Positions 12,165-32,443 of a stretch of DNA of 32,443 bases are shown one piece after another. Under the pieces are notes generated by a model. It searched no databases. It was not told the DNA's origin and saw nothing but the letters and a program-made list of their open reading frames with translations. Positions within the stretch are counted from its first letter, which is position 1, and each line of letters opens with the position of its first letter. Location of the stretch: the IMG/VR virus record IMGVR_UViG_2541047794_000003. The stretch is one strand, 5' to 3'. The stretch is from a virus (lineage: Duplodnaviria > Heunggongvirae > Uroviricota > Caudoviricetes). The translations under genes were made by a program, and so were the position numbers.

Positions 12165-12214
12165 GAGACCTGGCGGGGGAGAAATCCCTCGCCACCTCTG
12201 ATGTGTCAGGCATC

Positions 12215-13661: not shown

Positions 13662-14042
13662 ATGACTGAACGCATAGAATTTGTTTTGCCTTACCCGCCA
13701 ACGGTGAACACTTACTGGCGACGCCGTGGCAGCACATATTTTGTATCAAAAGCCGGGGAGCGTTATCGCCGGGCAGTGGCGCTTATTGTTCGCCAGCAGC
13801 GGCTGAAATTAAGCCTGTCCGGAAGGTTGGCAATAAAAATTATTGCAGAACCACCGGATAAGCGCCGCCGTGACCCGGACAATATTCTGAAAGCGCCGCT
13901 GGATGCGCTGACGCATGCGGGGTTGCTAATGGACGATGAGCAGTTTGATGAAATCAATATCGTTCGTGGTCAGCCAGTATCTGGTGGACGTCTGGGGGTG
14001 AAGATTTACCCCATAATGCTTGAAGGGCAGGTCAAAAAATGA
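13662..14042 (+). CDS. rusA: Holliday junction resolvase RusA
   Basis: 126 aa; LPYPPTVNTYWRRRG ... PDKRRRDPDNILKAPLDALTHAGLLMDDEQ ... GGRL matches RusA catalytic pattern. Confidence 0.85.
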   Translation: MTERIEFVLPYPPTVNTYWRRRGSTYFVSKAGERYRRAVALIVRQQRLKLSLSGRLAIKIIAEPPDKRRRDPDNILKAPLDALTHAGLLMDDEQFDEINIVRGQPVSGGRLGVKIYPIMLEGQVKK

Positions 14043-14860
14043 AACTGGAAGATTTACCGAAATACTACTCCCCAAAATCCCCCGGCCTGACCGATGCGTC
14101 CGCCTCGACATCAAAAGATGCGCTGAGTATCACTGATGTGATGGCCGCGCAGGGCATGACACAAAATCGGGCTGAGATGGGTTTTTCTGCGTTCCTTGGG
14201 AAAATGGGCATTAGTATGAATGACAGAGAGCGGGCAACAGAATTGCTGACAGAATATGCACTCAGTCGGTGTGATCGCGTGGCGGCGTTAAGAAAACTCC
14301 CGGCAGAAATAAAACCGGTAGTGATGCGCATTATGGCTTCGTACGCTTTTGAGGATTATGCCCGCAGCGCAGCGAGTAAAAAGCAGTGCCCTTGTTGCTA
14401 TGGGGAAAAATTTATTGAAAGCGTAGTTTTTACAAACAAGGTCCAGTATCCGGATGGTAAGCCGCCGGTATGGGCAAAGTGTACGAAAGGTGTGTATCCG
14501 TCTTACTGGGAAGAATGGAAAAAAGTCAGGGAGGTGGTAAAAGTTGCCTGTCCGGAGTGTGGCGGAAAGGGTGAGGTTTCCACCGCCTGTAAGGATTGCC
14601 GTGGGCGTGGTGTCGCCATTCATCGTGAAGAGTCGGTAAAACGTGGTATGCCTGTTATCAGAGACTGCCAGCGTTGTGGTGGTCGTGGCTGTGAAAGACT
14701 ACCATCAACGGAGGCATTTAATGCCATACGCAAAGTGACGAGTGCTATCACGCTTGATACGTGGAAAAAATCAGTGAAACGCTTTTACGATACGTTGGTG
14801 GTTCGGTTTGACATTGAAGAGGCATGGGCGGAGCGGCAGTTAAAGAGGGTAACGCGATAG
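14039..14860 (+). CDS. Q: Late-gene antiterminator Q (long Q-type with multiple CxxC zinc motifs)
   Basis: 273 aa with four CxxC pairs; ATGA overlap with rusA; immediately followed by a PR'-like promoter whose -10/initial transcribed region resembles lambda PR'. Confidence 0.65.
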   Translation: MKLEDLPKYYSPKSPGLTDASASTSKDALSITDVMAAQGMTQNRAEMGFSAFLGKMGISMNDRERATELLTEYALSRCDRVAALRKLPAEIKPVVMRIMASYAFEDYARSAASKKQCPCCYGEKFIESVVFTNKVQYPDGKPPVWAKCTKGVYPSYWEEWKKVREVVKVACPECGGKGEVSTACKDCRGRGVAIHREESVKRGMPVIRDCQRCGGRGCERLPSTEAFNAIRKVTSAITLDTWKKSVKRFYDTLVVRFDIEEAWAERQLKRVTR

Positions 14861-14865
14861 TGTTG

Positions 14866-14905: not shown

Positions 14906-14940
14906 GGGCGTTTTATGCCTGACGTTAGAAGATTTTTTAC

Positions 14941-14966
14941 ACCCCGCCGCCTGGCGGGTTTTTTAT
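14941..14966 (+). terminator. tR'-like intrinsic terminator
   Basis: CCCGCC gcct GGCGGG hairpin followed by TTTTTT about 50 nt downstream of PR' -10. Confidence 0.55.
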
Positions 14967-15086
14967 GACTGAAATCGCGTCAGTACAGTAAACGCGCTGG
15001 TGGCGGTGAATACCTGTCTTTCAGCTTGCTGGCTTTTTCGACAAGAGTTATTGGTGTGTCACGTTAACCGGAAAAGGGAAAAAGAC

Positions 15087-15284
15087 ATGCTAAAACAGCA
15101 GGATATGACAGAAACCGCCAGAGTAGTGTTTAATGAATTAAGAGTTACCGAACCGGCGACAGTCGGGGAGATAGCGCAGAATACTTACCTTTCACGCGAA
15201 CGCTGCCAGTTAATACTGACCCAGCTGGTTATGGCGGGTCTGGCAGACTATCAGTTCGGTTGTTACAGACGCCTTCCGCAGTGA
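15087..15284 (+). CDS. Small hypothetical protein (possible winged-helix DNA-binding)
   Basis: 65 aa from ATG 15087 with AAGGGA SD; intrinsic terminator hairpin overlaps its 3' end. Confidence 0.5.
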   Translation: MLKQQDMTETARVVFNELRVTEPATVGEIAQNTYLSRERCQLILTQLVMAGLADYQFGCYRRLPQ

Positions 15285-15296
15285 AGGCTTTTTTAT
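15271..15296 (+). terminator. Intrinsic terminator
   Basis: GCCTTC cgcagt GAAGGC followed by TTTTTTATTT. Confidence 0.5.
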
Positions 15297-15434
15297 TTGT
15301 GGTAAATGGGCGGCTGGTGGGTGTTAGGGGCACCCACCAGCCATCTGCTCATGCGTTGGGTTCACAAGCAAACCTCAGGCCCACTGCTTTGCGCAAAAGC
15401 AGAATGAGCCTATCAGAGACAGGCTTAATGATCC

Positions 15435-16484
15435 ATGCTTAATACTGTAAAAATATCCAGTTGTGAGTTAATCAACGCCGACTGCCTGGAATTTATCCGG
15501 TCGTTACCCGAAAATTCTGTTGACCTGATAGTCACGGACCCGCCGTACTTTAAAGTGAAGCCTGAGGGCTGGGATAACCAGTGGAAGGGCGACGATGATT
15601 ACCTGAAGTGGCTGGACCAGTGTCTGGCGCAGTTCTGGCGGGTGCTGAAACCTGCCGGAAGTCTTTACCTGTTCTGTGGTCATCGCCTGGCATCTGATAT
15701 CGAAATCATGATGCGTGAACGCTTCAGTGTGCTGAACCATATTATCTGGGCGAAGCCGTCCGGACGCTGGAACGGATGCAACAAGGAAAGCCTGCGGGCG
15801 TATTTCCCCGCCACAGAGCGCATTCTGTTCGCGGAACATTATCAGGGGCCGTATCGTCCGAAAGATGCCGGGTATGCGGTGAAGGGCAGTGCACTGAAAC
15901 AGCATGTGATGGCCCCGCTGATTTCTTACTTTCGTGATGCGCGCGCGGCCCTGGGGATAACGGCAAAACAGATTGCAGATGCCACAGGAAAGAAAAACAT
16001 GGTGTCGCACTGGTTCAGTGCCAGTCAGTGGCAGCTACCGAACGAAAGCGATTATCTGAAATTACAGTCGCTGTTTGCCCGGGTGGCAGAAGAGAAACAT
16101 CAGCGCGGTGAACTGGAAAAGCCCCACCACCAGCTGGTGGATACGTATACGTCACTGAACCGGCAGTATGTGGAGCTGCAGAGTGAATATAAGCATCTGC
16201 GGCGGTATTTTGGTGTGACGGCGCAGGTGCCGTACACGGATGTGTGGACACATAAACCGGTGCAGTTCTATCCCGGGAAACATCCGTGCGAAAAACCGGC
16301 AGAAATGCTGCAGCAGATAATCAGCGCAAGTAGCCGTCCTGGTGATCTGGTTGCGGATTTTTTCATGGGGTCGGGTTCAACGGTAAAAGCGGCGATGGCA
16401 CTGGGGCGTCGTGCGATTGGTGTTGAGCTGGAGACCGGACGTTTTGAGCAGACAGTCAGGGAAGTTCAGGATTTAATCGTTTGA
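15435..16484 (+). CDS. Orphan DNA methyltransferase, probably N6-adenine (beta-class motif order)
   Basis: 349 aa; TDPPY motif IV near N-terminus and FFMGSGST motif I near C-terminus; no adjacent restriction gene. Confidence 0.8.
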   Translation: MLNTVKISSCELINADCLEFIRSLPENSVDLIVTDPPYFKVKPEGWDNQWKGDDDYLKWLDQCLAQFWRVLKPAGSLYLFCGHRLASDIEIMMRERFSVLNHIIWAKPSGRWNGCNKESLRAYFPATERILFAEHYQGPYRPKDAGYAVKGSALKQHVMAPLISYFRDARAALGITAKQIADATGKKNMVSHWFSASQWQLPNESDYLKLQSLFARVAEEKHQRGELEKPHHQLVDTYTSLNRQYVELQSEYKHLRRYFGVTAQVPYTDVWTHKPVQFYPGKHPCEKPAEMLQQIISASSRPGDLVADFFMGSGSTVKAAMALGRRAIGVELETGRFEQTVREVQDLIV

Positions 16485-16533
16485 AACGGATGAGATTGCA
16501 GAATTAATTACGCACCATTATTATTCTGCTCCC

Positions 16534-16609
16534 GGCCCTTTAGCTCAGTGGTGAGAGCGAGCGACTCATAATCGCCAGGTCGCTGGTTCAAATCCAGCAA
16601 GGGCCACCA
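16534..16609 (+). tRNA. ileZ: tRNA-Ile (anticodon CAT, lysidine type; ileZ-like)
   Basis: 76-nt cloverleaf GGCCCTT...AAGGGCC-A-CCA; anticodon loop CTCATAA; near-identical architecture to E. coli tRNA-Ile2. Confidence 0.8.
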
Positions 16610-16616
16610 TCACATA

Positions 16617-16693
16617 CCGCCATTAGCTCATCAGGAAAGAGCGCCAGCCTTCGAAGCTGGTTGCGCGGAGTTCGGGTCCCCGAAGGCGGTCCA
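16617..16693 (+). tRNA. tRNA-Arg (anticodon TCG as read), atypical
   Basis: Cloverleaf with anticodon stem CCAGC/GCTGG and loop CTTCGAA; one mismatch in acceptor stem (A6:A67) and one in T-stem, T-loop TTCGGGT; ends CCA. Confidence 0.55.
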
Positions 16694-16706
16694 TTATCTG
16701 TATCCT

Positions 16707-16783
16707 GCGTTGTTAGCTCAGCCGGACAGAGCAATTGCCTTCTAAGCAATCGGTCACTGGTTCGAATCCAGTACAACGCGCCA
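16707..16783 (+). tRNA. argO: tRNA-Arg (anticodon TCT, reads AGA)
   Basis: Perfect acceptor stem GCGTTGT/ACAACGC, anticodon loop CTTCTAA, T-loop TTCGAAT, discriminator G, CCA. Confidence 0.8.
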
Positions 16784-16829
16784 CACTTATTTTCCCTGGC
16801 TCGCTTTTGTGGGCCTTTTTTTTAAATGT

Positions 16830-17045
16830 CTCACAATTTAGGCGGTTGACTGTTGTCTGGTTTGCGGGGAGTTTGTTAAAAGAAACTGGCATGGTGAATC
16901 CCCCTGTGCGGAGGGGCAATCAGCGAGTAGGTATATGGGATAATCGCGGATTCAGGTGCTGGTACTGAATTCACCGGGAGGCACCCGGCACCATGCAATG
17001 GCACATAGCGCCACTCTCCAGCCCCTCTCCGGAGGGGCTTTTCTG
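16830..17045 (+). repeat. Module A of tandem structured non-coding element (conserved arms GCATGGTG.../...CACCATGC, internal hairpins, terminator)
   Basis: CTCACAATT + TTGACT motif, conserved arm gcatggtgaatccccctgtgcggaggggc (16889-), arm ctgaattcaccgggaggcacccggcaccatgc (-16996), terminator CCCCTC tccg GAGGGG + T-run (17022-17045). Confidence 0.5.
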
Positions 17046-17297
17046 TGCCGGATACATCACAGTTTCTGGAACCTTAGGTACTACAGTATCAGTCAGGGTG
17101 CTATATTTTCAGATGTGATGAAAGCCTGTCAGCAGGCAGGGCGTATCGGAAATGACCCAGTAGAGAAAACGTTGACTCAGATACCGGTGCTGAGTTACCG
17201 GGAAACCGGCATCACATGACCGCTATCCTTCCAGGCCCATCCGCTCCGGTGGGCCTTTTTACTGCAGAAAACAGGTTCCCCGTTAAATGCTATGTTG

Positions 17298-17532
17298 CTC
17301 ACAATTCAGTAAGTTGACAGTTGCCTGTCAGACTGGGCATTTGTTAAAAAAATTTCGCATGGTGAATCCCCCTGAGCGGAGGGGCGACTGGTGACGGTAT
17401 AATCTCTGATTATCAAAACGAGAATGACGCGGGTTTAGTGGCACCGGGCTGAACTCACCGGGAGGCACCCGGCACCATGTGCATGATGATACAGATACGC
17501 GGCTTTAGCCCCTCTCCGGAGGGGTTTTCTTG
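17298..17532 (+). repeat. Module B, second copy of the same structured element with divergent core
   Basis: Same conserved arms (17357-17479) and same terminator (17507-17532); central ~60 nt unrelated to module A; preceded by terminator GGCCCA...TGGGCC+TTTTT (17234-17261). Confidence 0.5.
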
Positions 17533-17759
17533 TGGGCAAAAAAAGCCCGCGCTGGGAGACGCGGGCGGCAAGGAATAAACAATAAAACGTGAAGTAATAT
17601 TTCAGCTGGCGAATAATACCCCATAGTAATCACTCTGCGCAACTGCGCGGTCTTTTTCGAATTGCGGGCTGTCGTCTCTCTTCTGCCATTGTCCTGTAAC
17701 TTCCGGACTTCAGCCCGCTCCTTATTTTACTCACAATATTATCCCGGCCGGGAGGATTC

Positions 17760-19613
17760 ATGGCATTTAAACACTATGACGTGGTCAGGGCGGTATCGCC
17801 GTCAGACCTTGCGAAACGACTGACACAAAAACTGAAGGAGGGCTGGCAGCCGTTTGGTAGTCCGGTGGCCATAACCCCTTATACCCTGATGCAGGCGATT
17901 GCAGCAGAAGGTGATGTGGTGGTCAGTGGTGCAACTGAGCCGGATTGGTACTACGTCATCGTACTGGCCGGGCAGTCCAATGCCATGGCTTACGGTGAAG
18001 GGCTTCCGCTGCCGGATTCATACGATGCGCCCCATCCGCGCATTAAGCAACTGGCCCGTCGTAACACAGTGACTCCCGGTGGTGAAGTATGCGTATTTAA
18101 CGACATCATTCCTGCTGACCATTGTCTGCATGATGTTCAAGATATGAGTACGATTAACCATCCCCGGGCTGACCTGAGCAAAGGGCAGTACGGCTGTGTC
18201 GGACAGGGCTTACATATTGCCAAAAAACTGCTTCCGTATATCCCTAATAACGCGGGGATCCTGCTGGTACCATGCTGTCGTGGTGGTTCGGCATTCACCC
18301 AGGGCACGGAGGGGACATTCAGCGAGTCCACGGGGGCCAGTCAGGATTCGGCTCGCTGGGGAGTGGGTAAGCCGTTATATCAGGATCTGCTTTTCCGCAC
18401 GAAGGCAGCATTGCAGAAAAACCCGAAAAACGTTTTGCTGGCGATATGCTGGATGCAGGGGGAATTCGATATGACGAATGCCAGTTACGCCCAGCAGCCA
18501 GCAGCATTTCTTGCAATGGTACAGCAGTTCCGTGCTGACCTTGCCGGGCTGGCGGCGCAGTGTCACGGTGGAAGTCCGGCATCAGTCCCCTGGATTTGTG
18601 GCGACACGACATACGCGTGGAAACAAGAACACGGTACGCAATATGAAGTGGTATATGGTGCATATAAAGGTAAAGAATCCCAGCAGATTTATTTTGTTCC
18701 CTTTATGACCGATGGTAGCGGAGTTAATACACCGACAAACAACCCGTCAGAAGATCCTGATATTGCCGGGTCTGGTTATTACGGTTCGGCATCCCGAACG
18801 AACAAAAACTGGGTATCATCAAATCGCCCGACGCATTTCAGCTCATGGGCGCGTCGTGGCATTATTCCCGATCGTATGGCAACTGCTATTCTGAACGTAG
18901 CCGGTCGCACCTTAGCCTTCATTAGTGGTAAGGCACCGGAAATCAAACCCTCGCCCGGCGGCGACACGCCATCGGGGCCGTCTGAAGATGCATCCGTACG
19001 CACAATCTCCCTGTTGCCGACAGCCGGAGATGCTGCTGCGCAGGGCTGGAGCATTAAGAATGGCGGAATTCAGTTGTCAGAGGGTGTATTTAAGATCACC
19101 AAGCAGAGCAATAAAACCTGGTACCTGATGCATCCGGTGGATGACGCAATTACCCTGCTGACACAGGGCGGCAGACTGACCTGTAAGTTCCGCCTCTCAG
19201 GCGCACTGACCAACAATCAGTTCGGGCTGGGGATTTATCTGTATACGGACGCTCCCGTTCCTGATGATGTGGCGATGACGGGTACTGGTAATCCGTTCCT
19301 GATGTCTTACTTCACTCAGACCACTGACGGCAGAGTGAATCTGATGCATCACAGGAAAGCCGGAAACACGAAGCTGGGGGAGTTTGGCGATTACGGTAAC
19401 GACTGGCAGACGCTGGAGCTGGTGTTCACCGCCGGCAGTGCCACGGTTACTCCGAAACTGAATGGAGTGGCTGGCCCGGCATTCCAGGTCATAAAAGACA
19501 GTCTGACACTGGGGCTGAATGCGCTGACGCTGACGGATGTTACAAAAAATGCAGCGTATGGCGTTGAGATAGAAAGTCTGGTGCTGGAGATAAATGCACC
19601 GGCATCATCATAA
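17760..19613 (+). CDS. Prophage sialate O-acetylesterase (NanS-p type): N-terminal DUF1737 plus SGNH/SASA esterase domain
   Basis: 617 aa; GGGAGG SD; GQSNAMAYGEG esterase motif; sits downstream of the tRNA cluster as in Stx-phage late regions. Confidence 0.75.
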   Translation: MAFKHYDVVRAVSPSDLAKRLTQKLKEGWQPFGSPVAITPYTLMQAIAAEGDVVVSGATEPDWYYVIVLAGQSNAMAYGEGLPLPDSYDAPHPRIKQLARRNTVTPGGEVCVFNDIIPADHCLHDVQDMSTINHPRADLSKGQYGCVGQGLHIAKKLLPYIPNNAGILLVPCCRGGSAFTQGTEGTFSESTGASQDSARWGVGKPLYQDLLFRTKAALQKNPKNVLLAICWMQGEFDMTNASYAQQPAAFLAMVQQFRADLAGLAAQCHGGSPASVPWICGDTTYAWKQEHGTQYEVVYGAYKGKESQQIYFVPFMTDGSGVNTPTNNPSEDPDIAGSGYYGSASRTNKNWVSSNRPTHFSSWARRGIIPDRMATAILNVAGRTLAFISGKAPEIKPSPGGDTPSGPSEDASVRTISLLPTAGDAAAQGWSIKNGGIQLSEGVFKITKQSNKTWYLMHPVDDAITLLTQGGRLTCKFRLSGALTNNQFGLGIYLYTDAPVPDDVAMTGTGNPFLMSYFTQTTDGRVNLMHHRKAGNTKLGEFGDYGNDWQTLELVFTAGSATVTPKLNGVAGPAFQVIKDSLTLGLNALTLTDVTKNAAYGVEIESLVLEINAPASS

Positions 19614-19698
19614 AAAGTGAGCCAGCCAAATGGAAGGTATCGTTAAACTCACCGGTAGTGTCAGTGGGTCGTCTGAGATGCCTGCATGAGTTATCAGA

Positions 19699-19729
19699 GC
19701 CATCAGTACTTAACTGGTGGCTTTTTTTA
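19699..19729 (+). terminator. Hairpin plus T-run between esterase gene and holin
   Basis: GCCATCAG tacttaa CTGGTGGC (one G-U) followed by TTTTTTT. Confidence 0.35.
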
Positions 19730-19763
19730 TTGTTGTCAGCTTCCGGATAACGGGAGACGGGGT

Positions 19764-19979
19764 ATGTACCAGATGGAAAAAATCACAACAGGTGTGTCAT
19801 ACACCACGTCAGCGGTGGGAACGGGCTACTGGTTCCTGCAGTTGCTGGACAGGGTTTCCCCGTCTCAGTGGGCGGCAATAGGCGTGCTGGGGAGTCTGCT
19901 GTTTGGGCTGCTGACATATCTGACTAACCTGTATTTCAAAATCAGAGAGGACCGTCGTAAGGCTGCACGGGGAGAGTAA
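19764..19979 (+). CDS. S: Holin (phage 21 S-type, class II) with dual-start motif
   Basis: 71 aa [26 protein letters not shown]... two TM segments, basic C-terminus; GGAGA SD; track ORF start 19686 is an upstream extension. Confidence 0.8.
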
Positions 19980-19983
19980 TTCA

Positions 19984-20328
19984 ATGACTCAAAACTATGA
20001 ACTGATTGTGAAAGGGATCCGCAATTTTGAGAATAAAGTTACGGTAACTTTAGCGTTACGGGACAAAAAACGCTTTGACGGTGAAATTTTTGACCTGGAC
20101 ATCTCGCTGGACCGTGTTGAAGGTGCCGCGCTGGAGTTTTATGAGGCAGCAGCCAGAAGGAGCATCAGACAGGTCTTCCTGGATGTTGCTGCCGGGTTAT
20201 GTGAAGGGGATGAGCAGTCGCCGGAAAAGCGCCCCGTAATTTTAGAGGCGCAGGATGTGTTGATAACCTACAGAGGAAAACTACCGGGAATAATTACGGG
20301 TTCTCTGAAGAGTCCGCCGAAATGGTAA
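19984..20328 (+). CDS. Hypothetical protein within lysis cassette
   Basis: 114 aa, ATG 5 nt after holin stop, GGAGAG SD. Confidence 0.55.
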   Translation: MTQNYELIVKGIRNFENKVTVTLALRDKKRFDGEIFDLDISLDRVEGAALEFYEAAARRSIRQVFLDVAAGLCEGDEQSPEKRPVILEAQDVLITYRGKLPGIITGSLKSPPKW

Positions 20329-20566
20329 TTTTACCAGCATATTTTTCATCCAGTAATACAGCAAGCCGCCTGAAAGAGTCTTGTTGTTCCTGAGACCATT
20401 TGGGATTGCATGATTCAAACTGGATTGATGCCAGCGTTGATTGCATCTGTTCCCTTGGAATTGAGAATGCCAGATATGAGAAGGCGACGGTAAGGGTATT
20501 CACGTCTTCCCGAAGCCTGGAAATGCTGTCGAGCAACTCCTGTAGAGAAATGGTGTTATTGTCCAT
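20294..20566 (-). CDS. Hypothetical protein encoded antisense to the lysis cassette
   Basis: 90 aa; GAGGA SD 8 nt upstream of ATG (20564-20566); 3' end overlaps previous plus-strand gene. Confidence 0.45.
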   Translation of the reverse strand: MDNNTISLQELLDSISRLREDVNTLTVAFSYLAFSIPREQMQSTLASIQFESCNPKWSQEQQDSFRRLAVLLDEKYAGKITISADSSENP

Positions 20567-20671
20567 AAATAATCCTCATGATTGTATTGACCTGTTAGCA
20601 GCCTGAGGCAACAGGCTGGAACTGATAAACATATCCAGGGCTCAGAAACCGATAAATCCTGATAAATATCC

Positions 20672-21205
20672 ATGAACGCAAAAATCAGATACGGCCTGTC
20701 GGCTGCCGTTCTGGCGCTGATTGCCGCTGGTGCGCCTGCGCCTGACATTCTCGACCAGTTTCTGGATGAAAAGGAAGGTAACCACACCACGGCATACCGT
20801 GATGGCGCGGGTATCTGGACCATCTGCCGCGGTGCCATCCTGGTGGATGGCAAACCTGTCGTTCCGGGCATGAAGTTGTCGAAGGAAAAATGCGACCGGG
20901 TTAACGCCATTGAGCGTGATAAGGCGCTGGCATGGGTGGAGAAAAACATCAGAGTGCCATTGAGTGAACCCCAGAAAGCGGGGATCGCGTCATTCTGTCC
21001 GTACAACATTGGTCCCGGTAAGTGTTTCCCGTCGACGTTTTATAAACGAATTAATGCAGGTGATCGCAGGGGAGCGTGTGAGGCGATTCGCTGGTGGATT
21101 AAGGACGGTGGCAGAGACTGCCGTATCCGCTCAAATAACTGTTATGGTCAGGTATCCCGTCGTGACCAGGAGAGCGCGCTGGCGTGCTGGGGAATCGACA
21201 GATAA
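20672..21205 (+). CDS. R: SAR endolysin (GH24 lysozyme with N-terminal signal-anchor-release segment)
   Basis: 177 aa; hydrophobic N-terminus LSAAVLALIAAGAPA followed by lysozyme-like region. Confidence 0.8.
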   Translation: MNAKIRYGLSAAVLALIAAGAPAPDILDQFLDEKEGNHTTAYRDGAGIWTICRGAILVDGKPVVPGMKLSKEKCDRVNAIERDKALAWVEKNIRVPLSEPQKAGIASFCPYNIGPGKCFPSTFYKRINAGDRRGACEAIRWWIKDGGRDCRIRSNNCYGQVSRRDQESALACWGIDR

Positions 21206-21295
21206 GCAGAATATTTTGCTGAAAAATAAGGCATGGCCACGCGGGCGGATAACATGAAATCCTGCGAACTGGCGAAACGTAAGTGAATAAAAGTA

Positions 21296-21328
21296 AAAAC
21301 CCCGTTTGTTGGCACCAAGCGGGGTTTT
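21296..21328. terminator. Hairpin flanked by A-run and U-run between R and Rz (possible bidirectional terminator)
   Basis: AAACCCCG ... CGGGGTTT 8-bp stem, followed by TTTTGTGTTT. Confidence 0.4.
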
Positions 21329-21403
21329 GTGTTTCCTGACTCCGGAAAAGTCAAAGGAGAAAGTGTGTTTGATTTTAGCAAACTGATTCGGGAGATTCGA
21401 GTG

Positions 21404-21502
21404 ATGGCTGAAAAATTATCCACCTGGAAGTTCATTCTTATCTGGCTGGTGTTTGTGATTATGGCCTCCGGTTATTTCATCGGTCAGATACGCTGGTGGT
21501 GA
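21404..21502 (+). CDS. Candidate 32-aa single-TM peptide, stop adjacent to Rz start
   Basis: [32 protein letters not shown]; GGGAGA SD 9 nt upstream; TGA stop 1 nt before Rz ATG; not in the six-frame track (too short). Confidence 0.3.
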
Positions 21503-21503
21503 A

Positions 21504-21971
21504 ATGAACCGCGTACTGTGCGTGGTCATCATTGCCCTGCTGGTGGCCTGTGGTGCGCTTAGTCTGGGGCTGAATCATTACCGTGATAACGCCATTACCT
21601 ACAAAGCCCAGCGCGACAAAAATGTCAGAGAACTGAAGCTGGCGAACGCGGCAATTACTGACATGCAGATGCGTCAGCGTGATGTTGCTGCGCTCGATGC
21701 AAAATACACGAAGGAGTTAGCTGATGCGAAAGCTGAAAATGAAACTCTTCGCGCTGACGTTGCCGCTGGTCGTAAGCGCCTGCGTATCAACGCCACCTGT
21801 CCAGGTCCCGTGCGTGAAGCCACCGGCACCGCCCGCGTGGATAATGCAACCGGCCCCCAACTGGCAGACACCGTTACACGGGATTATTTCACCCTCAGAG
21901 AGCGGCTGATGACGATGCAGAAGCAACTGGAAGGGGCGCAGGAATATATCCGTACTCAGTGCCTGAAATAA
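21504..21971 (+). CDS. Rz: Rz i-spanin
   Basis: 155 aa, N-terminal TM, coiled coil; strong resemblance to lambda Rz ([17 protein letters not shown]...). Confidence 0.9.
21724..21909 (+). CDS. Rz1: Rz1 o-spanin lipoprotein embedded in +1 frame of Rz
   Basis: 61 aa with lipobox LVVSAC and proline-rich segment, fully nested in Rz. Confidence 0.8.
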
Positions 21972-23215: not shown

Positions 23216-23722
23216 ATGGCCTTTTTATTGAATAAAAGTGATATGGCCTCCTCCATCGGTATCTCTGTTCAGGCATTTGATAAATGGGGCGTTCCTCCTG
23301 TTGAACGTCGGGGGAGGGAAGTTTTATATGACGTTAAAACTGTACTGGAGATAGATCGCGAGCGGCGACAACACAATCAGAGAACACCTGATGACGGGGG
23401 AGAACTGGAGGAAAGGCTGCTTCGGGCCAGAGCTGAACTGACAGAAGAACAGGCTGTAGCTCAAAAACTTAAAAATCAGGTAACCGAAGGTAAGCTCATC
23501 GATTCAGACTTCTGCGTTTTCGCCCTCAGCAAACTGGCGATGGCATTGTCCAGTACGCTTGATTCCATTCCGTTATCCATGCAGCGACAGTTCCCGGATT
23601 TAACGCCACGTCATATTGACCATCTGAAAACCCTTATTGCAAAGGGCGCAAATCAGTGTGCGCGGGCAGGGGATAAATTACCGGATTTGCTGGATGAATA
23701 TATCAGAGCAACAACTGAATAA
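23216..23722 (+). CDS. nu1: Terminase small subunit (lambda Nu1 type)
   Basis: 168 aa from ATG 23216 with GGAGAGGAG SD; wHTH N-terminus; LPLSMQRQFPDL...HIDHLKT resembles Nu1; 3' end overlaps terminase large subunit start. Confidence 0.85.
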   Translation: MAFLLNKSDMASSIGISVQAFDKWGVPPVERRGREVLYDVKTVLEIDRERRQHNQRTPDDGGELEERLLRARAELTEEQAVAQKLKNQVTEGKLIDSDFCVFALSKLAMALSSTLDSIPLSMQRQFPDLTPRHIDHLKTLIAKGANQCARAGDKLPDLLDEYIRATTE

Positions 23723-25622
23723 TATGGTGGCCGCCGTTTCGGTTGCGCTGCAGCCTCTGGTCAGGGTTGTACCGATGACGGCAGTTGAATGGGCTGACCA
23801 GTATTATTATCTGCCGAAAGAATCCTCATACGGTGACGGCGAATGGAAAACGCTGCCGTTCCAGATCGCCATCATGAACAGTATGGGGAATGATCAGATC
23901 CGCACTGTTAATCTGATTAAATCTGCCCGTGTTGGCTATACAAAGATGTTGCTGGGAGTCGCCGGGTATTTTATTGAGCATAAATCCCGAAACAGTCTGC
24001 TTTTTCAGCCCACGGATTCTGCCGCTGAAGATTTTATGAAGTCTCACGTGGAGGCGACGATTCGGGACGTGCCATGCCTGAAAGATCTTTCCCCGTGGCT
24101 GGGTCGTAAACATCGTGACAATACTCTCATGCTGAAACGCTTTTCATCGGGGGTGGGCTTCTGGTGCCTGGGTGGTGCGGCAGCAAAAAACTACCGTGAA
24201 AAATCCGTGGACGTGGTCTGCTATGACGAACTTTCCTCGTTCGAGCCGGATGTCGAAAAAGAGGGCTCGCCAACCCTGCTGGGGGATAAGCGTATTGAGG
24301 GCTCGGTATGGCCAAAATCCATTCGCGGCTCGACGCCTAAAATAAAAGGCTCCTGCCAGATCGAAAAAGCGGCCAACGAGTCGGCGCATTTCATGCGTTT
24401 TTATGTGCCCTGCCCGCACTGTGGGGAGGCGCAGTATCTGAAATTTGGCGATGAGTCCACGCCTTTTGGCCTTAAATGGGAGAAGGACAGCCCCGAAAGC
24501 GTTTTCTACCTCTGTGAACATCATGGCTGCGTGATCCATCAGTCTGAGCTTGACCAGAGCAACGGGCGGTGGATCTGCGAAAACACGGGGATGTGGACCC
24601 GCGACGGTCTGACGTTTTTCAGCGCCGCGGATAATGAAATTCCGCCGCCGCGCTCCATCACATTCCATATCTGGACGGCGTACAGTCCGTTCACCACCTG
24701 GGTACAGATTGTCTATGACTGGCTGGATGCACTGAAAGATCCCAACGGCCTGAAAACCTTTGTGAACACCACGCTGGGCGAGACCTGGGAAGAGGCCGTG
24801 GGCGAAAAACTCGATCACCAGGTGCTGATGGATAAGGTTGTGCGTTACACGGCTGCGGTGCCTTCCCGGGTGGTTTATCTGACGGCGGGCATTGACTCGC
24901 AGCGAAACCGTTTTGAGATGTATGTCTGGGGATGGGCTCCGGGAGAGGAAGCCTTTCTGGTGGATAAAATCATCATTATGGGGCGTCCCGATGAGGAAGA
25001 GACGCTGTTACGTGTGGATGTGGCGATCAACAAAAAATACCGCCATGCAGACGGAACCGAAATGACCATTTCCCGTGTCTGCTGGGACACCGGGGGGATC
25101 GATGGCGAAATTGTCTATCAGAGGTCAAAAAAACACGGTGTTTTCCGGGTGCTGCCGGTAAAAGGTGCATCTGTTTATGGCAAGCCGGTGATCACCATGC
25201 CAAAAACCCGCAATCAGCGGGGCGTGTATCTGTGCGAAGTGGGGACGGACACCGCAAAAGAAATTCTCTATGCCCGTATGAAAGCCGATCCCACGCCTGT
25301 GGATGAAGCCACGTCGTATGCCATCCGTTTTCCTGATGATCCGGAGATTTTTTCGCAGACAGAGGCGCAGCAACTGGTCGCGGAAGAGCTTGTGGAGAAG
25401 TGGGAAAAAGGAAAGATGCGTCTGCTGTGGGATAACAAAAAGCGGCGTAACGAAGCGCTGGACTGCCTGGTGTATGCCTACGCGGCATTACGTGTGTCCG
25501 TGCAACGCTGGCAGCTTGATCTGGCTGTACTGGCAAAATCCCGGGAAGAAGAGACGACCCGGCCAACCCTTAAAGAACTGGCAGCGAAGCTGTCCGGAGG
25601 AGTGAATGGTTACAGTCGCTGA
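23694..25622 (+). CDS. A: Terminase large subunit (lambda gpA type)
   Basis: 642 aa; extended collinearity with lambda gpA (TAVEWAD..YYLPKES, GFWCLGGAAAKNYREKSVDV, CPHCGEAQYLKFGD...). Confidence 0.95.
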   Translation: MNISEQQLNNMVAAVSVALQPLVRVVPMTAVEWADQYYYLPKESSYGDGEWKTLPFQIAIMNSMGNDQIRTVNLIKSARVGYTKMLLGVAGYFIEHKSRNSLLFQPTDSAAEDFMKSHVEATIRDVPCLKDLSPWLGRKHRDNTLMLKRFSSGVGFWCLGGAAAKNYREKSVDVVCYDELSSFEPDVEKEGSPTLLGDKRIEGSVWPKSIRGSTPKIKGSCQIEKAANESAHFMRFYVPCPHCGEAQYLKFGDESTPFGLKWEKDSPESVFYLCEHHGCVIHQSELDQSNGRWICENTGMWTRDGLTFFSAADNEIPPPRSITFHIWTAYSPFTTWVQIVYDWLDALKDPNGLKTFVNTTLGETWEEAVGEKLDHQVLMDKVVRYTAAVPSRVVYLTAGIDSQRNRFEMYVWGWAPGEEAFLVDKIIIMGRPDEEETLLRVDVAINKKYRHADGTEMTISRVCWDTGGIDGEIVYQRSKKHGVFRVLPVKGASVYGKPVITMPKTRNQRGVYLCEVGTDTAKEILYARMKADPTPVDEATSYAIRFPDDPEIFSQTEAQQLVAEELVEKWEKGKMRLLWDNKKRRNEALDCLVYAYAALRVSVQRWQLDLAVLAKSREEETTRPTLKELAAKLSGGVNGYSR

Positions 25623-25809
25623 ACTGCAGGTGCTGCGTCAGGCGCGCCTTGATTTATTAACCGGTAAACGGGTGGTGTCTGTCCAGAAAGATGGTCGCAG
25701 AATTGAATATACGGCAGCTTCTCTGGATGAGCTTAACCGGGCGATCAATGATGCGGAGTCGGTACTGGGGACCCGCCGTCGCCGTCGTCCGCTGGGAGTG
25801 AGGTTATGA
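25606..25809 (+). CDS. W: Head-tail joining protein W
   Basis: 67 aa; LTGKRVVSVQKDGRRIEYTAAS matches lambda gpW. Confidence 0.9.
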   Translation: MVTVAELQVLRQARLDLLTGKRVVSVQKDGRRIEYTAASLDELNRAINDAESVLGTRRRRRPLGVRL

Positions 25810-27398
25810 AACGAACGCCTGTCCTGATTGATGTGAACGGCGTTCCGCTTCGGGAGAGCCTCAGCTACAACGGTGGCGGTGCAGGATTTGGCGGGCAAAT
25901 GGCAGAGTGGTTGCCACCCTCGCAGAGTGCCGATGCGGCCCTGCTGCCCGCGTTGCGTCTGGGGAATGCCCGTGCAGATGATCTGGTGCGCAATAACGGA
26001 ATAGCGGCCAATGCGGTGGCCCTGCATAAGGATCACATTGTCGGGCATATGTTTCTGATTAGCTACCGTCCGAACTGGCGCTGGCTGGGGATGCGGGAGA
26101 CCGCAGCAAAAAGCTTTGTCGATGAGGTGGAGGCGGCCTGGTCGGAATACGCCGAAGGGATGTTTGGCGAGATCGACGTGGAAGGAAAACGCACGTTCAC
26201 GGAATTTATCCGTGAAGGTGTGGGCGTTCATGCGTTTAACGGCGAAATCTTTGTGCAGCCGGTCTGGGATACGGAAACCACGCAGTTATTCCGTACGCGT
26301 TTTAAAGCCGTGAGTCCGAAACGGGTGGACACGCCTGGACACGGTATGGGGAACCGTTTTCTGCGGGCCGGTGTGGAGGTCGATCGATATGGCCGTGCCG
26401 TCGCGTACCATATTTGTGAGGATGATTTTCCGTTCTCTGGTAGTGGACGATGGGAACGGATCCCGCGTGAACTTCCCACCGGACGTCCGGCCATGCTGCA
26501 TATTTTCGAGCCGGTGGAGGACGGGCAGACCCGTGGGGCTAATCAGTTTTACAGCGTCATGGAACGGCTGAAGATGCTCGATTCCCTGCAGGCAACACAG
26601 CTTCAGTCGGCCATAGTGAAGGCGATGTATGCAGCGACGATTGAAAGTGAACTTGATACCGAAAAGGCCTTTGAATATATCGCCGGTGCGCCGCAGGGGC
26701 AGAAGGATAATCCGCTTATTAATATTCTGGATAAGTTCTCCACCTGGTATGACACGAATAGCGTGACGCTGGGCGGTGTCAAAATTCCGCACCTTTTCCC
26801 CGGTGATGATCTGAAACTTCAGACCGCGCAGGATTCAGACAATGGATTTTCGGCGCTTGAACAGGCGCTGCTGCGGTATATCGCCGCCGGTCTTGGCGTT
26901 TCCTACGAACAGTTGTCCCGTGATTACTCGAAGGTCAGTTATTCAAGTGCCCGCGCATCCGCAAATGAGTCGTGGCGCTATTTTATGGGGCGGCGAAAAT
27001 TTATTGCGTCCCGGCTGGCCACGCAGATGTTTTCCTGCTGGCTGGAAGAGGCACTTCTTCGGGGGATTATTCGTCCGCCACGGGCACGTTTTGATTTTTA
27101 TCAGGCGCGATCAGCCTGGTCACGGGCTGAGTGGATTGGAGCCGGAAGAATGGCCATTGACGGGCTCAAGGAGGTTCAGGAATCAGTGATGCGCATTGAG
27201 GCCGGACTGAGCACGTATGAGAAAGAGCTGGCGCTGATGGGCGAGGATTATCAGGACATTTTCCGCCAGCAGGTCAGGGAATCTGCAGAGCGGGAAAAAG
27301 CCGGACTCTCACGTCCGGTGTGGATAGCGCAGGCGTATCAGCAGCAGATAGCGGAGAGTCGCAGGCCGGAAGAGGAGACAACACCACGTGAGACGTAA
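25806..27398 (+). CDS. B: Portal protein (lambda gpB type)
   Basis: 530 aa, position and size as lambda B, overlaps W stop. Confidence 0.9.
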   Translation: MKRTPVLIDVNGVPLRESLSYNGGGAGFGGQMAEWLPPSQSADAALLPALRLGNARADDLVRNNGIAANAVALHKDHIVGHMFLISYRPNWRWLGMRETAAKSFVDEVEAAWSEYAEGMFGEIDVEGKRTFTEFIREGVGVHAFNGEIFVQPVWDTETTQLFRTRFKAVSPKRVDTPGHGMGNRFLRAGVEVDRYGRAVAYHICEDDFPFSGSGRWERIPRELPTGRPAMLHIFEPVEDGQTRGANQFYSVMERLKMLDSLQATQLQSAIVKAMYAATIESELDTEKAFEYIAGAPQGQKDNPLINILDKFSTWYDTNSVTLGGVKIPHLFPGDDLKLQTAQDSDNGFSALEQALLRYIAAGLGVSYEQLSRDYSKVSYSSARASANESWRYFMGRRKFIASRLATQMFSCWLEEALLRGIIRPPRARFDFYQARSAWSRAEWIGAGRMAIDGLKEVQESVMRIEAGLSTYEKELALMGEDYQDIFRQQVRESAEREKAGLSRPVWIAQAYQQQIAESRRPEEETTPRET

Positions 27399-28893
27399 TC
27401 TTTCACACATTATTGCAGCAGCATTCAATGAACCGCTGCTTCTGGAGCCCGCCTATGCGCGGGTTTTCTTTTGCGCGCTGGGGCGCGAGATGGGGGCAGC
27501 AAGTCTTTCGGTACCGCAACAGCAGGTACAGCTTGATGCTCCCGGGATGCTGGCTGAAACGGACGAGTACATGGCCGGAGGTAAACGACCGGCCCGTGTT
27601 TACCGGGTGGTGAACGGTATTGCTGTACTGCCGGTGACCGGCACGCTGGTGCACCGGCTGGGTGGTATGCGGCCATTTTCCGGAATGACAGGCTATGACG
27701 GTATTGTCGCCTGTCTTCAGCAGGCAATGGCGGATAGCCAGGTGCGGGGCGTACTGCTGGACATTGACAGTCCGGGCGGGCAGGCCGCCGGCGCGTTTGA
27801 CTGCGCTGACATGATTTACCGCCTCCGTCAGCAGAAGCCGGTCTGGGCACTGTGCAATGACACTGCCTGTTCTGCAGCCATGCTGCTGGCGTCGGCCTGC
27901 TCCCGACGGCTGGTTACCCAGACATCCCGTATCGGCTCCATTGGCGTGATGATGAGCCATGTCAGCTATGCCGGTCATCTGGCGCAGGCCGGTGTGGATA
28001 TCACGCTGATTTATGCCGGGGCGCACAAGGTGGATGGCAATCAGTTTGAAGCGTTGCCGGCAGAGGTTCGCCAGGATATGCAGCAGCGGATTGATGCGGC
28101 GCACCGGATGTTTGCCGAAAAAGTGGCGATGTATACCGGGTTGTCTGTGGATGCGGTCACGGGAACAGAGGCCGCTGTTTTTGAAGGTCAGTCCGGCATT
28201 GAGGCCGGGCTGGCGGATGAATTAATCAATGCGTCGGATGCCATCAGTGTGATGGCCACGGCGCTGAACAGTAATGTCAGAGGAGGCACTATGCCGCAAT
28301 TAACTGCAACGGAAGCCGCCGTGCAGGAGAACCAGCGAGTGATGGGGATCCTGACATGCCAGGAAGCGAAAGGACGTGAACAGCTTGCCACGATGCTGGC
28401 AGGGCAACAGGGCATGAGCGTTGAACAGGCCCGGGCGATTCTGGCCGCGGCGGCACCGCAGCAGCCGGTGGCATCCGCGCAGAGTGAAGCCGATCGCATT
28501 ATGGCGTGTGAAGAAGCGAACGGTCGTGAACAACTGGCGGCAACGCTGGCGGCGATGCCGGAGATGACGGTGGAAAAAGCCCGCCCGATCCTGGCGGCTG
28601 CACCACTGGCGGATGCCGGGCCCTCACTTCGTGATCAGATCATGGCACTGGATGAGGCAAAAGGGGCAGAAGCGCAGGCTGAAAAACTGGCGGCCTGCCC
28701 GGGAATGACCGTGGAGAACGCCCGGGCTGTGCTGGCTGCGGGATCAGGTAAGGCCGAACCGGTCTCTGCATCCACAACCGCCCTGTTTGAACATTTCATG
28801 GCGAATCATTCACCGGCAGCGGTGCGGGGTGGCGTGTCACAGACGTCAGCAGACGGTGATGCGGACGTGAAAATGCTCATGGCCATGCCATGA
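27388..28893 (+). CDS. C: Head maturation protease C (S49/ClpP-like) with C-terminal scaffold region
   Basis: 501 aa, GTG start; N-terminal FNEPLLLEPAYARVFFCAL as lambda gpC; C-terminal three tandem ~48-aa repeats. Confidence 0.9.
   Translation: MRRNLSHIIAAAFNEPLLLEPAYARVFFCALGREMGAASLSVPQQQVQLDAPGMLAETDEYMAGGKRPARVYRVVNGIAVLPVTGTLVHRLGGMRPFSGMTGYDGIVACLQQAMADSQVRGVLLDIDSPGGQAAGAFDCADMIYRLRQQKPVWALCNDTACSAAMLLASACSRRLVTQTSRIGSIGVMMSHVSYAGHLAQAGVDITLIYAGAHKVDGNQFEALPAEVRQDMQQRIDAAHRMFAEKVAMYTGLSVDAVTGTEAAVFEGQSGIEAGLADELINASDAISVMATALNSNVRGGTMPQLTATEAAVQENQRVMGILTCQEAKGREQLATMLAGQQGMSVEQARAILAAAAPQQPVASAQSEADRIMACEEANGREQLAATLAAMPEMTVEKARPILAAAPLADAGPSLRDQIMALDEAKGAEAQAEKLAACPGMTVENARAVLAAGSGKAEPVSASTTALFEHFMANHSPAAVRGGVSQTSADGDADVKMLMAMP
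28291..28893 (+). CDS. Nested in-frame scaffold gene (Nu3-like) within 3' part of C
   Basis: Internal ATG 28291 preceded by AGAGGAGG SD, in frame with C; lambda Nu3 is arranged the same way. Confidence 0.5.
   Translation: MPQLTATEAAVQENQRVMGILTCQEAKGREQLATMLAGQQGMSVEQARAILAAAAPQQPVASAQSEADRIMACEEANGREQLAATLAAMPEMTVEKARPILAAAPLADAGPSLRDQIMALDEAKGAEAQAEKLAACPGMTVENARAVLAAGSGKAEPVSASTTALFEHFMANHSPAAVRGGVSQTSADGDADVKMLMAMP
28345..28790 (+). repeat. Three tandem ~145-bp repeats within C/Nu3 coding region
   Basis: Protein repeats EAKGREQLATMLAGQQGMSVEQARAILAAA / EANGREQLAATLAAMPEMTVEKARPILAAA / EAKGAEAQAEKLAACPGMTVENARAVLAAG. Confidence 0.7.
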
Positions 28894-28929
28894 AGTCAGT
28901 GCTGACCATCAATATGAGGTTTTAACAAA

Positions 28930-29277
28930 ATGGTGACGAAAACCATCACTGAACAGCGTGCGGAAGTACGTATTTTTGCTGGTAATGATCCGGCTCATAC
29001 CGCCACAGGCAGCAGCGGGATTTCTTCTGCAACACCGGCTCTGACGCCCCTGATGCTGGATGAAGCCACCGGGAAACTGGTGGTCTGGGATGGACAGAAA
29101 GCCGGTAGTGCGGTTGGCATACTGGTACTGCCGCTTGAAGGCACAGAGACGGTGCTGACCTATTACAAGTCGGGGACCTTTGCGACGGAGGCAATCCGCT
29201 GGCCTGACAGTGTGGATGAACACAAAAAGGCAAATGCCTTTGCCGGCACAGCCCTGAGTCACGCGGCTCTGCCATAA
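28930..29277 (+). CDS. D: Head decoration protein D
   Basis: 115 aa; DPAHTAT, TPLMLDE..KLV.WDG, GILV, YKSGTF, AFAGTA match lambda gpD. Confidence 0.9.
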   Translation: MVTKTITEQRAEVRIFAGNDPAHTATGSSGISSATPALTPLMLDEATGKLVVWDGQKAGSAVGILVLPLEGTETVLTYYKSGTFATEAIRWPDSVDEHKKANAFAGTALSHAALP

Positions 29278-29334
29278 CACGTTATCAGGCCACCATGGTG
29301 GCCTGACTGATTTCTGAATGAAAGGAACTGATTT

Positions 29335-30363
29335 ATGGGATTGTTTACGACCCGCCAGTTACTCGGTTATACCGAACAAAAAGTGAAATTCCGTGCGCTA
29401 TTTCTGGAGCTGTTTTTCCGCCGGACGGTGAATTTCCATACCGAAGAAGTGATGCTGGACAAAATTACCGGAAAAACGCCGGTGGCGGCCTATGTCTCCC
29501 CGATCGTTGAAGGAAAAGTGCTGCGCCATCGTGGTGGTGAAACCCGCGTGTTGCGTCCGGGCTACGTCAAGCCGAAACACGAATTTAATTACCAGCAGGC
29601 GGTTGAGCGCCTTCCCGGTGAAGATCCGGCTCAGCTGAACGACCCGGCCTACCGTCGTCTGCGTATCATCACTGATAACCTCAAACAGGAAGAGCACGCT
29701 ATTGTGCAGGTGGAAGAAATGCAGGCGGTGAATGCCGTGCTGTATGGCAAATATACGATGGAAGGAGACCAGTTCGAGAAAATTGAAGTCGATTTTGGCC
29801 GATCGACGAAGAATAACATCATACAAGGTAGCGGTAAGGAGTGGTCAAAACAGGATCGTGACACGTTCGACCCGACATATGATATCGACCTTTTCTGTGA
29901 TCAGGCCAGTGGTCTTGTGAATATTGCCATTATGGACGGTACCGTCTGGCGTCTGCTGAATGGCTTTAAGCTTTTCCGCGAAAAACTGGATACCCGTCGC
30001 GGTTCAAATTCACAACTCGAAACGGCAGTGAAAGATCTGGGCGCAGTGGTATCCTTCAAGGGGTATTACGGCGATCTGGCCATTGTGGTAGCGAAAACGT
30101 CTTATGTGGCAGAGGACGGTACCGAAAAACGTTATCTGCCGGAGGGCACGCTGGTGCTGGGGAATACGGCAGCAGAGGGGATTCGTTGCTATGGAGCCAT
30201 TAAGGATGCACAGGCGTTGTCTGAAGGAGTGGTGGCTTCTTCCCGTTACCCGAAACACTGGCTGACCGTGGGCGATCCGTCCTGTGAATTCACCATGACG
30301 CAGTCCGCGCCGCTGATGGTGCTGCCGGATCCGGATGAGTTTGTGGTGGTACAGGTGAAATAA
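29335..30363 (+). CDS. E: Major capsid protein E
   Basis: 342 aa; collinear with lambda gpE (LDTRRGSNS.LETAVKDLG, SAPLM.L.DPDEFV). Confidence 0.95.
   Translation: MGLFTTRQLLGYTEQKVKFRALFLELFFRRTVNFHTEEVMLDKITGKTPVAAYVSPIVEGKVLRHRGGETRVLRPGYVKPKHEFNYQQAVERLPGEDPAQLNDPAYRRLRIITDNLKQEEHAIVQVEEMQAVNAVLYGKYTMEGDQFEKIEVDFGRSTKNNIIQGSGKEWSKQDRDTFDPTYDIDLFCDQASGLVNIAIMDGTVWRLLNGFKLFREKLDTRRGSNSQLETAVKDLGAVVSFKGYYGDLAIVVAKTSYVAEDGTEKRYLPEGTLVLGNTAAEGIRCYGAIKDAQALSEGVVASSRYPKHWLTVGDPSCEFTMTQSAPLMVLPDPDEFVVVQVK

Positions 30364-31720: not shown

Positions 31721-32443
<723 letters not shown>

Follow-up and report, generated by a model that had tools for sequence, protein, structure and literature searches.

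The 32,443-nt sequence analyzed here, IMG/VR record IMGVR_UViG_2541047794_000003 (Caudoviricetes; "the window" below means this whole stretch), contains a nanS-p gene, a member of a family of prophage-borne sialate O-acetylesterases. The coding sequence occupies 17760..19613 on the + strand (stop codon included), begins with ATG, encodes 617 aa, and is preceded by a Shine-Dalgarno sequence, GGAGG, read at 17751..17755, 4 nt 5′ of the start codon. An earlier note on this DNA, made without database searches, had proposed a 617-aa open reading frame (ORF) at this place, with a DUF1737-like N-terminus and a GQSN motif, after a tRNA region and before a holin gene. Each of these points was borne out: the coordinates are exact, the N-terminus matches DUF1737 (PF08410, E=6.5e-15), GQSN occupies residues 71-74, and the gene starts 976 nt 3′ of the end (16783) of a tRNA trio, with the start of a P21-type holin gene (19764) 150 nt 3′ of it. 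The ORF is real beyond chance, given that the PDB entry for NanS is matched at E=1e-122 and that the nucleotide sequence recurs at 100% identity in six chromosomes of E. coli. The protein matches phrog_143 over its full length and is 100% identical to RefSeq WP_021535865.1; RefSeq labels it "DUF6645 domain-containing protein" or "SASA family carbohydrate esterase." The PHROGs search of the protein returned only families of "unknown function," and no meaningful NCBIfam match was found for it. The central claim of the earlier note, that the product is a NanS-p-type sialate O-acetylesterase, is upheld by the Pfam domains, the match to the NanS structure, and the late-region context.

Three Pfam domains were called on the protein, all over the curated cut-offs; DUF1737 and SASA, the two for which a hidden Markov model search had been suggested beforehand, were both among them. 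The DUF1737 domain (17760..17927, residues 1-56) matched at residues 3-50, covering profile positions 1-53/53. Residues 1-33 form its near-invariant helix part, 91% identical to 933W, and residues 34-53 (nt 17859-17918) form an "anchor" region, SPVAITPYTLMQAIAAEGDV, of the type called A below; it is within the DUF1737 domain that an association with head type, described later, peaks. An SGNH type II/SASA esterase core follows at 17934..18899 (residues 59-380), recognized by NanS homology and by PF03629 (residues 66-262, E=1.4e-12). Compared with E. coli NanS (YjhS; PDB 3pt5) by phmmer, the core gave E=1.3e-122 over residues 59-379, at 58.7% identity. The SGNH blocks are all present (GQSN at 71, CCRGGS at 172, WMQGE at 231, and RPTHFSS at 356), and the "RPTH" variant of block IV was noted previously for Stx2 phage 86 (PMC10462455).

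In PMC9063846 (citing Rangarajan 2011), E. coli NanS is described as having Ser19 and His301 as catalytic residues, no catalytic Asp, and an oxyanion hole formed by Gln18 and a Gly. Pairwise alignment equated NanS Q18, S19, and H301 with Q72, S73 (nt 17973-17978), and H359 (nt 18834-18836) of the window protein, and none of the three varies across 22 aligned, diverse members of the family. The predicted Ser73-His359 dyad and Gln72/Gly oxyanion hole are intact. The earlier note had named the absence of a catalytic Ser, His, or Asp on alignment as grounds for refutation, which was mis-specified: NanS enzymes are naturally without a catalytic Asp, and the alignment check should therefore shrink to Ser and His. 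The Ser, the His, and the oxyanion Gln are conserved here.

A Pro/Ser/Gly-rich linker (18900..19019, residues 381-420), whose identity is 36% with 933W and 100% with phage 86, joins the core to a C-terminal lectin-like jelly-roll domain (DUF6645, PF20350; 19020..19610), a putative carbohydrate-binding module matched at residues 467-577 with E=4.5e-17. An AlphaFold2 model of the full protein, built on the 22-sequence alignment, had a mean predicted local distance difference test score (pLDDT) of 65 and was confident only in the C-terminal domain, predicted as a beta-sandwich at residues ~420-617 with pLDDT ~90. Confidence was low over residues 384-413 of the linker, and the N-domain was too poor for the model to be used for that domain or for active-site geometry. 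The C-terminal domain matched that of phi24B NanS-p (PDB 6yp6) with E=4.3e-29 over residues 421-613. The aromatic residues proposed for the phi24B sugar site, Y510, Y515, Y540, and F611, correspond to F488, Y493, F518, and L584 in the window protein, where three of the four are still aromatic. Two points weigh against assigning the known activity to this allele: the enzyme call derives from its sequence and from homologues, and the C-terminal domain is just 36.5% identical to the crystallized one, with a Leu at the fourth sugar-site position.

The exact nucleotide sequence of the gene was found in six complete E. coli chromosomes and, at 99.5% identity or more, in eight others. Of the 5,426 complete genomes searched, 2,389 have at least one relative (7,582 places in all; median two and maximum 13 copies per genome), and a phage collection held 353 records with a homologue, mostly Stx phages. 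The nearest of these is Stx2 phage 86, and the nearest proteins in that collection include Stx1a phage alleles at 88% identity. Many E. coli nanS-p copies are truncated, frameshifted, or interrupted by insertion sequence (IS) elements, and prophages at this site may be defective, so that the gene might be an inactive relic, decaying in a cryptic prophage without yielding a functional enzyme. Such decay is highly improbable here. The ORF is not truncated, and none of its catalytic or structural blocks is disrupted; its sequence is preserved in the six and eight chromosomes just mentioned; synonymous variants outnumber nonsynonymous ones in the N-domain; and the Q, lysis, and head genes of the surrounding prophage are intact.

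The gene as such is nothing new. The NanS-p family has been thoroughly described and is common among E. coli prophages, and exactly this sequence already has an annotation: it is an ordinary, already-known NanS-p allele, nearest to those of enteropathogenic E. coli (EPEC) E2348/69 and Stx2 phage 86. According to a review, all seven EDL933 alleles and five O104:H4 alleles, including those of non-Stx prophages, are active esterases that allow growth on Neu5,9Ac2 (PMC8065619).

The gene lies in the late operon of a stx-negative lambdoid prophage, 3′ of the antiterminator gene Q and several intrinsic terminators and directly 5′ of genes for a holin, a lysozyme, and a spanin. The late antiterminator Q (14039..14860, +; 273 aa; PF03589, E=8.5e-51, and RefSeq) presumably controls nanS-p transcription. 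Directly 3′ of it lies a tR'-like intrinsic terminator (14943..14966, +), a GC-rich hairpin (14943-14958), CCCGCCGCCTGGCGGG, followed by a T-run. A terminator scan of positions 14700-20100 found 17 terminator-like sites against 5.1 expected, with at least five such hairpins 5′ of nanS-p alongside Q and the tR'-like terminator, and no sigma-70-like promoter was found on the + strand from Q to the holin gene. The terminator excess and the missing promoter match fit expression by Q-dependent read-through; no claim is made about a promoter of nanS-p itself. For other alleles, quantitative PCR has established Q-dependent or induced expression, with mitomycin C raising transcript levels by 1-2.4 logs (PMC10462455). 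The terminator scan and RNA folding also identified a strong 12-bp hairpin with a U-run (19696..19732, +) in the spacer that separates nanS-p from the holin gene, and this spacer is 99% identical in Stx2 phage 86. In the absence of Q, transcription of the lysis genes would be uncoupled from that of the esterase by the hairpin, which may also terminate a PasA/PasC-like small RNA (sRNA), since the Pas preprint cited below reports such an sRNA at the same position.

Taken together, the ORF very probably encodes a functional NanS-p family member that is expressed late under Q, released at lysis, and active in deacetylating mucin sialic acids. The sequence of events can be outlined from the late-operon context and from published experiments on homologues. 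The gene would be transcribed mainly once Q antiterminates after prophage induction. The N-terminus (MAFKHYDVVRAVSPSDLAKRL...), on direct inspection, has no hydrophobic stretch resembling a signal peptide, and the protein would leave the cell at phage lysis. Outside, it would strip 7/8/9-O-acetyl groups off mucin sialic acids such as Neu5,9Ac2, and the resulting Neu5Ac would become accessible to sialidases and could be catabolized by sibling lysogens that survive, through their Nan pathway.

A different substrate has been raised as a possibility in the review PMC8065619, in which the enzyme, virion-borne or released, serves phage infection by de-O-acetylating bacterial glycans (O-antigen or the O-acetylated polysialic K1 capsule) for adsorption or receptor modification, rather than host mucin. 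Association with the virion, as reported for phi24B, is compatible with such a role, as is the situation at three related loci (L147, L150, and L151; e.g., L150:9809-11848). There, a SASA+DUF6645 esterase with the N-terminus MTSKWVQLSSMPGNF... instead of DUF1737 is directly preceded by Mu-like baseplate genes, homologous to gp44-gp48, together with a Gin-like resolvase/invertase, in tail-fibre territory; the esterase-lectin body can apparently join other virion modules. The infection role is nevertheless improbable for the window protein. Its catalytic core shares 59% identity with NanS, an esterase specific for sialates; PMC8065619 credits homologues with activity on Neu5,9Ac2 and on mucin glycans, and with allowing growth on them; no evidence was found for a bacterial substrate; and placement on the capsid rather than the tail, as in phi24B, would be odd for a receptor-modifying enzyme.

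The DUF1737 domain has recently acquired a structural context. In phi24B, the 933W-type NanS-p protein gp84 is reported, from cryo-electron microscopy and proteomics, to be an abundant virion protein; its DUF1737 domain (residues 2-57), in hexameric form, attaches within the central pore of hexons at the face centres of a T=9 capsid by means of an anchor loop containing Tyr42, and its esterase and lectin parts are later cleaved off, an SSP motif being proposed for autoproteolysis (2026 preprint, bioRxiv 10.64898/2026.04.10.717836). The domain was compared across 160 related IMG/VR loci and 11 named complete phages. Its core was typed as A (SPVAITPYTLMQ, the window's type), B (STAGYGAEFIQ, the 933W/phi24B type), or C (SSYTDDGAALIQ). 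Four head types were distinguished: lambda gpE/gpD; 933W-type (PF13252); H3, with a gpA-like terminase and a ClpP-capsid fusion; and H4, which is HK97-like with an S78 protease-capsid fusion. Counted over the IMG/VR set plus the window and 933W, core A occurs with a lambda head at 34 loci, with H4 at 14, and with H3 at two, whereas core B occurs with a 933W head at seven loci and with H4 at one, and core C with H3 at eight. The 11 named phages agree with this pairing. B or B-like cores accompany 933W-type heads in 933W, SH2026Stx1, Lyz12581Vzw, PhiR5_2, and phage 86; core A accompanies H4 in JLK-2012, BP-4795, 1717, and two other Stx phages, and a lambda head in PhiR12_4. A strict one-to-one pairing was rejected, since A is found with lambda, H4, and H3 heads and one locus combines B with H4; the two A-H3 loci are prophages with split terminase or portal genes.

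When the loci were dereplicated to 47 haplotypes, head type explained 77% of the entropy of core type (U=0.77, permutation p~2e-4), compared with 30% for Q, 22% for SASA, 35% for the C-terminal domain, 20% for the endolysin, and 12% for Rz. Although nanS-p is separated from the head genes by the lysis genes, the latter are only weakly associated with head type. In a column scan of 65 unique proteins, the association peaked at residues 16-55 (U=0.57-0.82) and held steady at ~0.2 over the rest of the chain, from residue 61 on. What is new here is that head type and the DUF1737 anchor vary together, with the signal confined to this stretch, whereas free shuffling is seen for the esterase, the lectin domain, and the lysis genes. 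Anchor and head co-vary, and the phi24B observation therefore becomes a testable general hypothesis. Phage 86 is the informative case, with a window-type esterase body behind a type-B anchor that matches its own head. At the DNA level, 6-10 codons differ synonymously between types over residues 1-33, and the 17 DNA haplotypes of the type-A anchor (codons 34-53) carry 24 synonymous versus 7 nonsynonymous variants; the SASA row of this count was ignored because it was mis-registered by linker length, and linker-length classes were likewise left unused. These counts indicate that both DUF1737 halves are under purifying selection in type-A alleles, and the domain would therefore have some function in type-A phages. 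The 70 nt 5′ of nanS-p are near-identical in 933W and in type-C alleles.

From these patterns it is possible, at somewhat short of even odds, that DUF1737 tethers this enzyme to the phage head as in phi24B, for display on virions. The wider proposal, held tentatively, is that many lambdoid phages, this lambda-headed prophage included, would display NanS-p on the capsid as a modular enzyme that modifies mucin, with the anchor (~16-55) as an exchangeable, head-co-adapted adaptor behind which esterase and lectin modules recombine freely. Anchor B could then serve 933W-type heads, C the ClpP-capsid-fusion heads, and A both lambda gpE and HK97-like heads, and the label of "cargo" for nanS-p may be too simple.

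The conventional view in the literature (PMC8065619, PMC10462455) is nonetheless that of a moron, a lysogen fitness factor freed at lysis. Applied to the window, it would mean that type-A DUF1737 does not bind a lambda-type capsid and that the association of core with head reflects shared ancestry. Several observations favor this view and weigh against tethering. The phi24B anchor loop, STAGYGAEF with its Tyr42 "tooth," is replaced by AITP---YTLM, three residues shorter, and Tyr41 stands in another sequence context; neither linker of the window protein contains SISSP or SSP. The head of the window prophage is of the lambda gpE (PF03864)/gpD (PF02924) kind and not of the phi24B type with face-centre hexons. 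Phage lambda has a T=7 capsid. The phi24B protein binds solely the flat face-centre hexons of its T=9 capsid, and a lambda-type capsid is without such hexons. Moreover, type A is found with three unrelated head types and may be a generalist or even a non-binder, the related loci are phylogenetically non-independent, and the genomic contexts of three stand-alone or distant DUF1737 genes are mixed.

Set against the view of NanS-p as cargo and nothing else are four features of the comparison. Linkage alone predicts that the C-terminal domain, the endolysin, and Rz, which are nearer the head genes, would associate with head type as strongly as the anchor does, but their U values are 0.12-0.35 versus 0.77; the signal is confined to residues 16-55; phage 86 combines a window-type esterase body with a B-type anchor that matches its 933W-type terminase; and both halves of type-A DUF1737 are under purifying selection. 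With evidence on both sides, the cargo-only explanation is a live contender, although it too is credited with less than an even chance.

Beyond NanS-p itself, a word-indexed search for a wider range of DUF1737 proteins returned only truncated NanS-p fragments, and a search for loci related to the distant DUF1737 proteins gave nothing usable. The distant metagenomic proteins (P0269, P0261, P0271, and P0273) often have two tandem DUF1737 copies, and P0269 also has "AAGATAEAARQAIGAGTS" repeats that resemble those of fibres. Of the stand-alone DUF1737 genes, one, P0291 (L182:8001-8216), is flanked by a terminase gene and a putative portal gene; another, P0275 (L181), lies among ordinary chromosomal genes.

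In Stx phages, stxAB occupies the slot between the tRNAs and nanS-p. The earlier note had stated that no stx is present, and this is correct: tblastn with phage 86 Stx2A and Stx2B gave nothing better than E=1.2 in the whole window. Remnants of stx in the 976-nt gap 5′ of nanS-p were considered and rejected on the same searches. The gap instead holds two tandem, PasD-related sRNA genes of the STnc100 family (RF02076; gathering score 47 bits) on the + strand. Copy 1 lies at 16860..17050 (136 bits; terminator hairpin 17020-17039), and copy 2 at 17328..17537 (161 bits; terminator hairpin 17507-17526). The copies comprise direct-repeat families D1-D3. Copy 1 is 97% identical to a stretch 5′ of the esterase gene in EPEC E2348/69, and copy 2 can be aligned, at 75%, with the stxB-nanS-p spacer of 933W. 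STnc100 is linked to the EPEC sRNA PasD in a 2026 preprint, which also reports that PasD2 and PasA flank the E2348/69 esterase gene (bioRxiv 10.64898/2026.05.13.724894). The 8-mer CTCACAAT occurs three times in the window (16830, 17298, and 17730), always on the + strand and within 0.9 kb, and each copy lies 22-30 nt 5′ of a feature start, namely STnc100 copy 1, copy 2, and the nanS-p ATG. Its count is little unusual (three matches were reached in 5/100 shuffles), but its placement is, and the 8-mer may be a shared promoter or processing element.

The tRNA trio at 16534..16783 (+; ARAGORN and Rfam) consists of Ile2 (CAU), Arg (UCG), and Arg (UCU). Its counterpart is ileZ-argN-argO of 933W, and it is 90% identical to the 933W tRNA region. 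The first tRNA (16534-16609, +) was called Met (CAU) by ARAGORN, whereas RefSeq and the 933W annotation make it tRNA-Ile (ileZ, lysidine-modified, reading AUA). Between Q and the tRNAs lies an N6/N4 DNA methyltransferase gene (15435..16484, +; 349 aa; PF01555, E=1.8e-44), in the same operon as nanS-p and also cargo; the gene is intact in the window, but its copy in the AR_0017 prophage is annotated as carrying a frameshift. The esterase had been described as the only obvious cargo gene of the late operon, a statement that does not hold, since two STnc100 sRNAs, three tRNAs, and this intact methylase are also there.

On the 3′ side, an uninterrupted lysis cassette (19764..21971, +; Pfam and RefSeq) contains the P21-type holin gene (19764-19979; PF04971), a DUF1327 gene (19984-20328; PF07041), the lysozyme gene (20672-21205; PF00959), and Rz (21504-21971; PF03245) with embedded Rz1 (21724-21909; RefSeq). 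A 90-aa ORF on the opposite strand (20294-20566, -), between the DUF1327 and lysozyme genes, is a RefSeq hypothetical protein without a Pfam match. The lambda-type head module (23216..30363, +; RefSeq) includes TerS, a gpA-type TerL (23694-25622), a portal (25806-27398), and an S49 protease (27388-28893), all annotated by RefSeq, followed by a gpD-like decoration protein (28930-29277; PF02924) and a gpE-type major capsid protein (29335-30363; PF03864), also on the + strand.

The window is 99.975% identical over 32.2 kb to the prophage adjoining ompW in E. coli AR_0017. The alignment to that prophage does not extend into the last ~200 nt (32235-32443), an observation suggestive of a mosaic breakpoint among the tail genes. 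The order of the prophage begins with integrase, excisionase, an early region (DicF, C4, and IsrK RNAs), replication genes, queH with hok/sok, DUF968 and RusA, and Q. It continues with the tR'-like hairpin, a small ORF, the N6/N4 methylase, tRNA-Ile2/Arg/Arg, the ~1-kb slot, nanS-p, the lysis genes, and the lambda-type head. Further accessory elements are the C4 antisense RNA and the IsrK and DicF sRNAs with dicB on the early left side (4988-5459, -), and queH, for epoxyqueuosine reductase, with the hok/sok toxin-antitoxin module in the nin region (11085-12166, +).

The window thus presents a toxin-free prophage whose "stx slot" is filled by regulatory sRNAs beside a mucus-foraging enzyme. Should anchor and head type truly be matched, NanS-p would be displayed on virions and would affect the behavior of these and related toxin phages in gut mucus. 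The anchor comparison offers a testable handle on a question in the Stx-phage literature, namely why these phages so consistently carry NanS-p.

Among known systems, the NanS-p protein of 933W and phi24B (L0105 = z1466 = vb_24B_21 = gp84) shares with the window protein the order of DUF1737, SASA/NanS core, and DUF6645, and its gene likewise lies between the Q/tRNA/stx slot and the holin gene. The proteins are 52-55% identical overall, and for 933W the identity varies along the chain: 91% over residues 1-33, 22% over the anchor (34-56), 70% in the esterase core, and 34% in the C-terminal domain. Relative to the 933W/phi24B protein, the window protein has an anchor loop shorter by 3 aa and lacking "AGYG," and a first linker shorter by 11 aa and lacking SISSP. 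The window prophage has a lambda gpE/gpD head and no stx 5′ of the gene, whereas 933W and phi24B have a PF13252 capsid protein, with T=9 reported for phi24B. The allele of Stx2 phage 86 ("sequence 20" in Pascal et al. 2023) is much closer, with 93.6% nucleotide identity, 95% in the core, 89% in the C-terminal domain, and the same "RPTH" in block IV. Unlike the window, it has a 933W-type (B) DUF1737 anchor, a long linker, stx2 5′ of the gene, and a 933W-type terminase, and it is thus a mosaic of both types. Both 933W and phage 86 share with the window the order Q/stx slot, nanS-p, holin. The esterase of EPEC E2348/69 (WP_000874298.1) is 99% identical in protein sequence, has a type-A anchor and no stx, and likewise has an STnc100/PasD-like element 5′ of it. 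That prophage differs in having iraM and DUF3927 in the slot, two tRNAs only, and IS elements between esterase and holin, whereas in the window the sRNA gene is present as two tandem copies and nothing interrupts the lysis cassette. Chromosomal E. coli NanS (YjhS, 3pt5) shares the SGNH type II core, the Ser-His dyad, and the Gln/Gly oxyanion hole, but it is a single-domain protein of ~326 aa that is found outside prophages and is without DUF1737 and the lectin domain. Finally, should tethering hold, the window protein would resemble capsid decoration of the T4 Hoc type (cited in the phi24B preprint) as a capsid-anchored, glycan-directed module facing mucus. Hoc is non-enzymatic and binds as a monomer, whereas the window protein, through a hypothetical attachment, would display an esterase together with a lectin.

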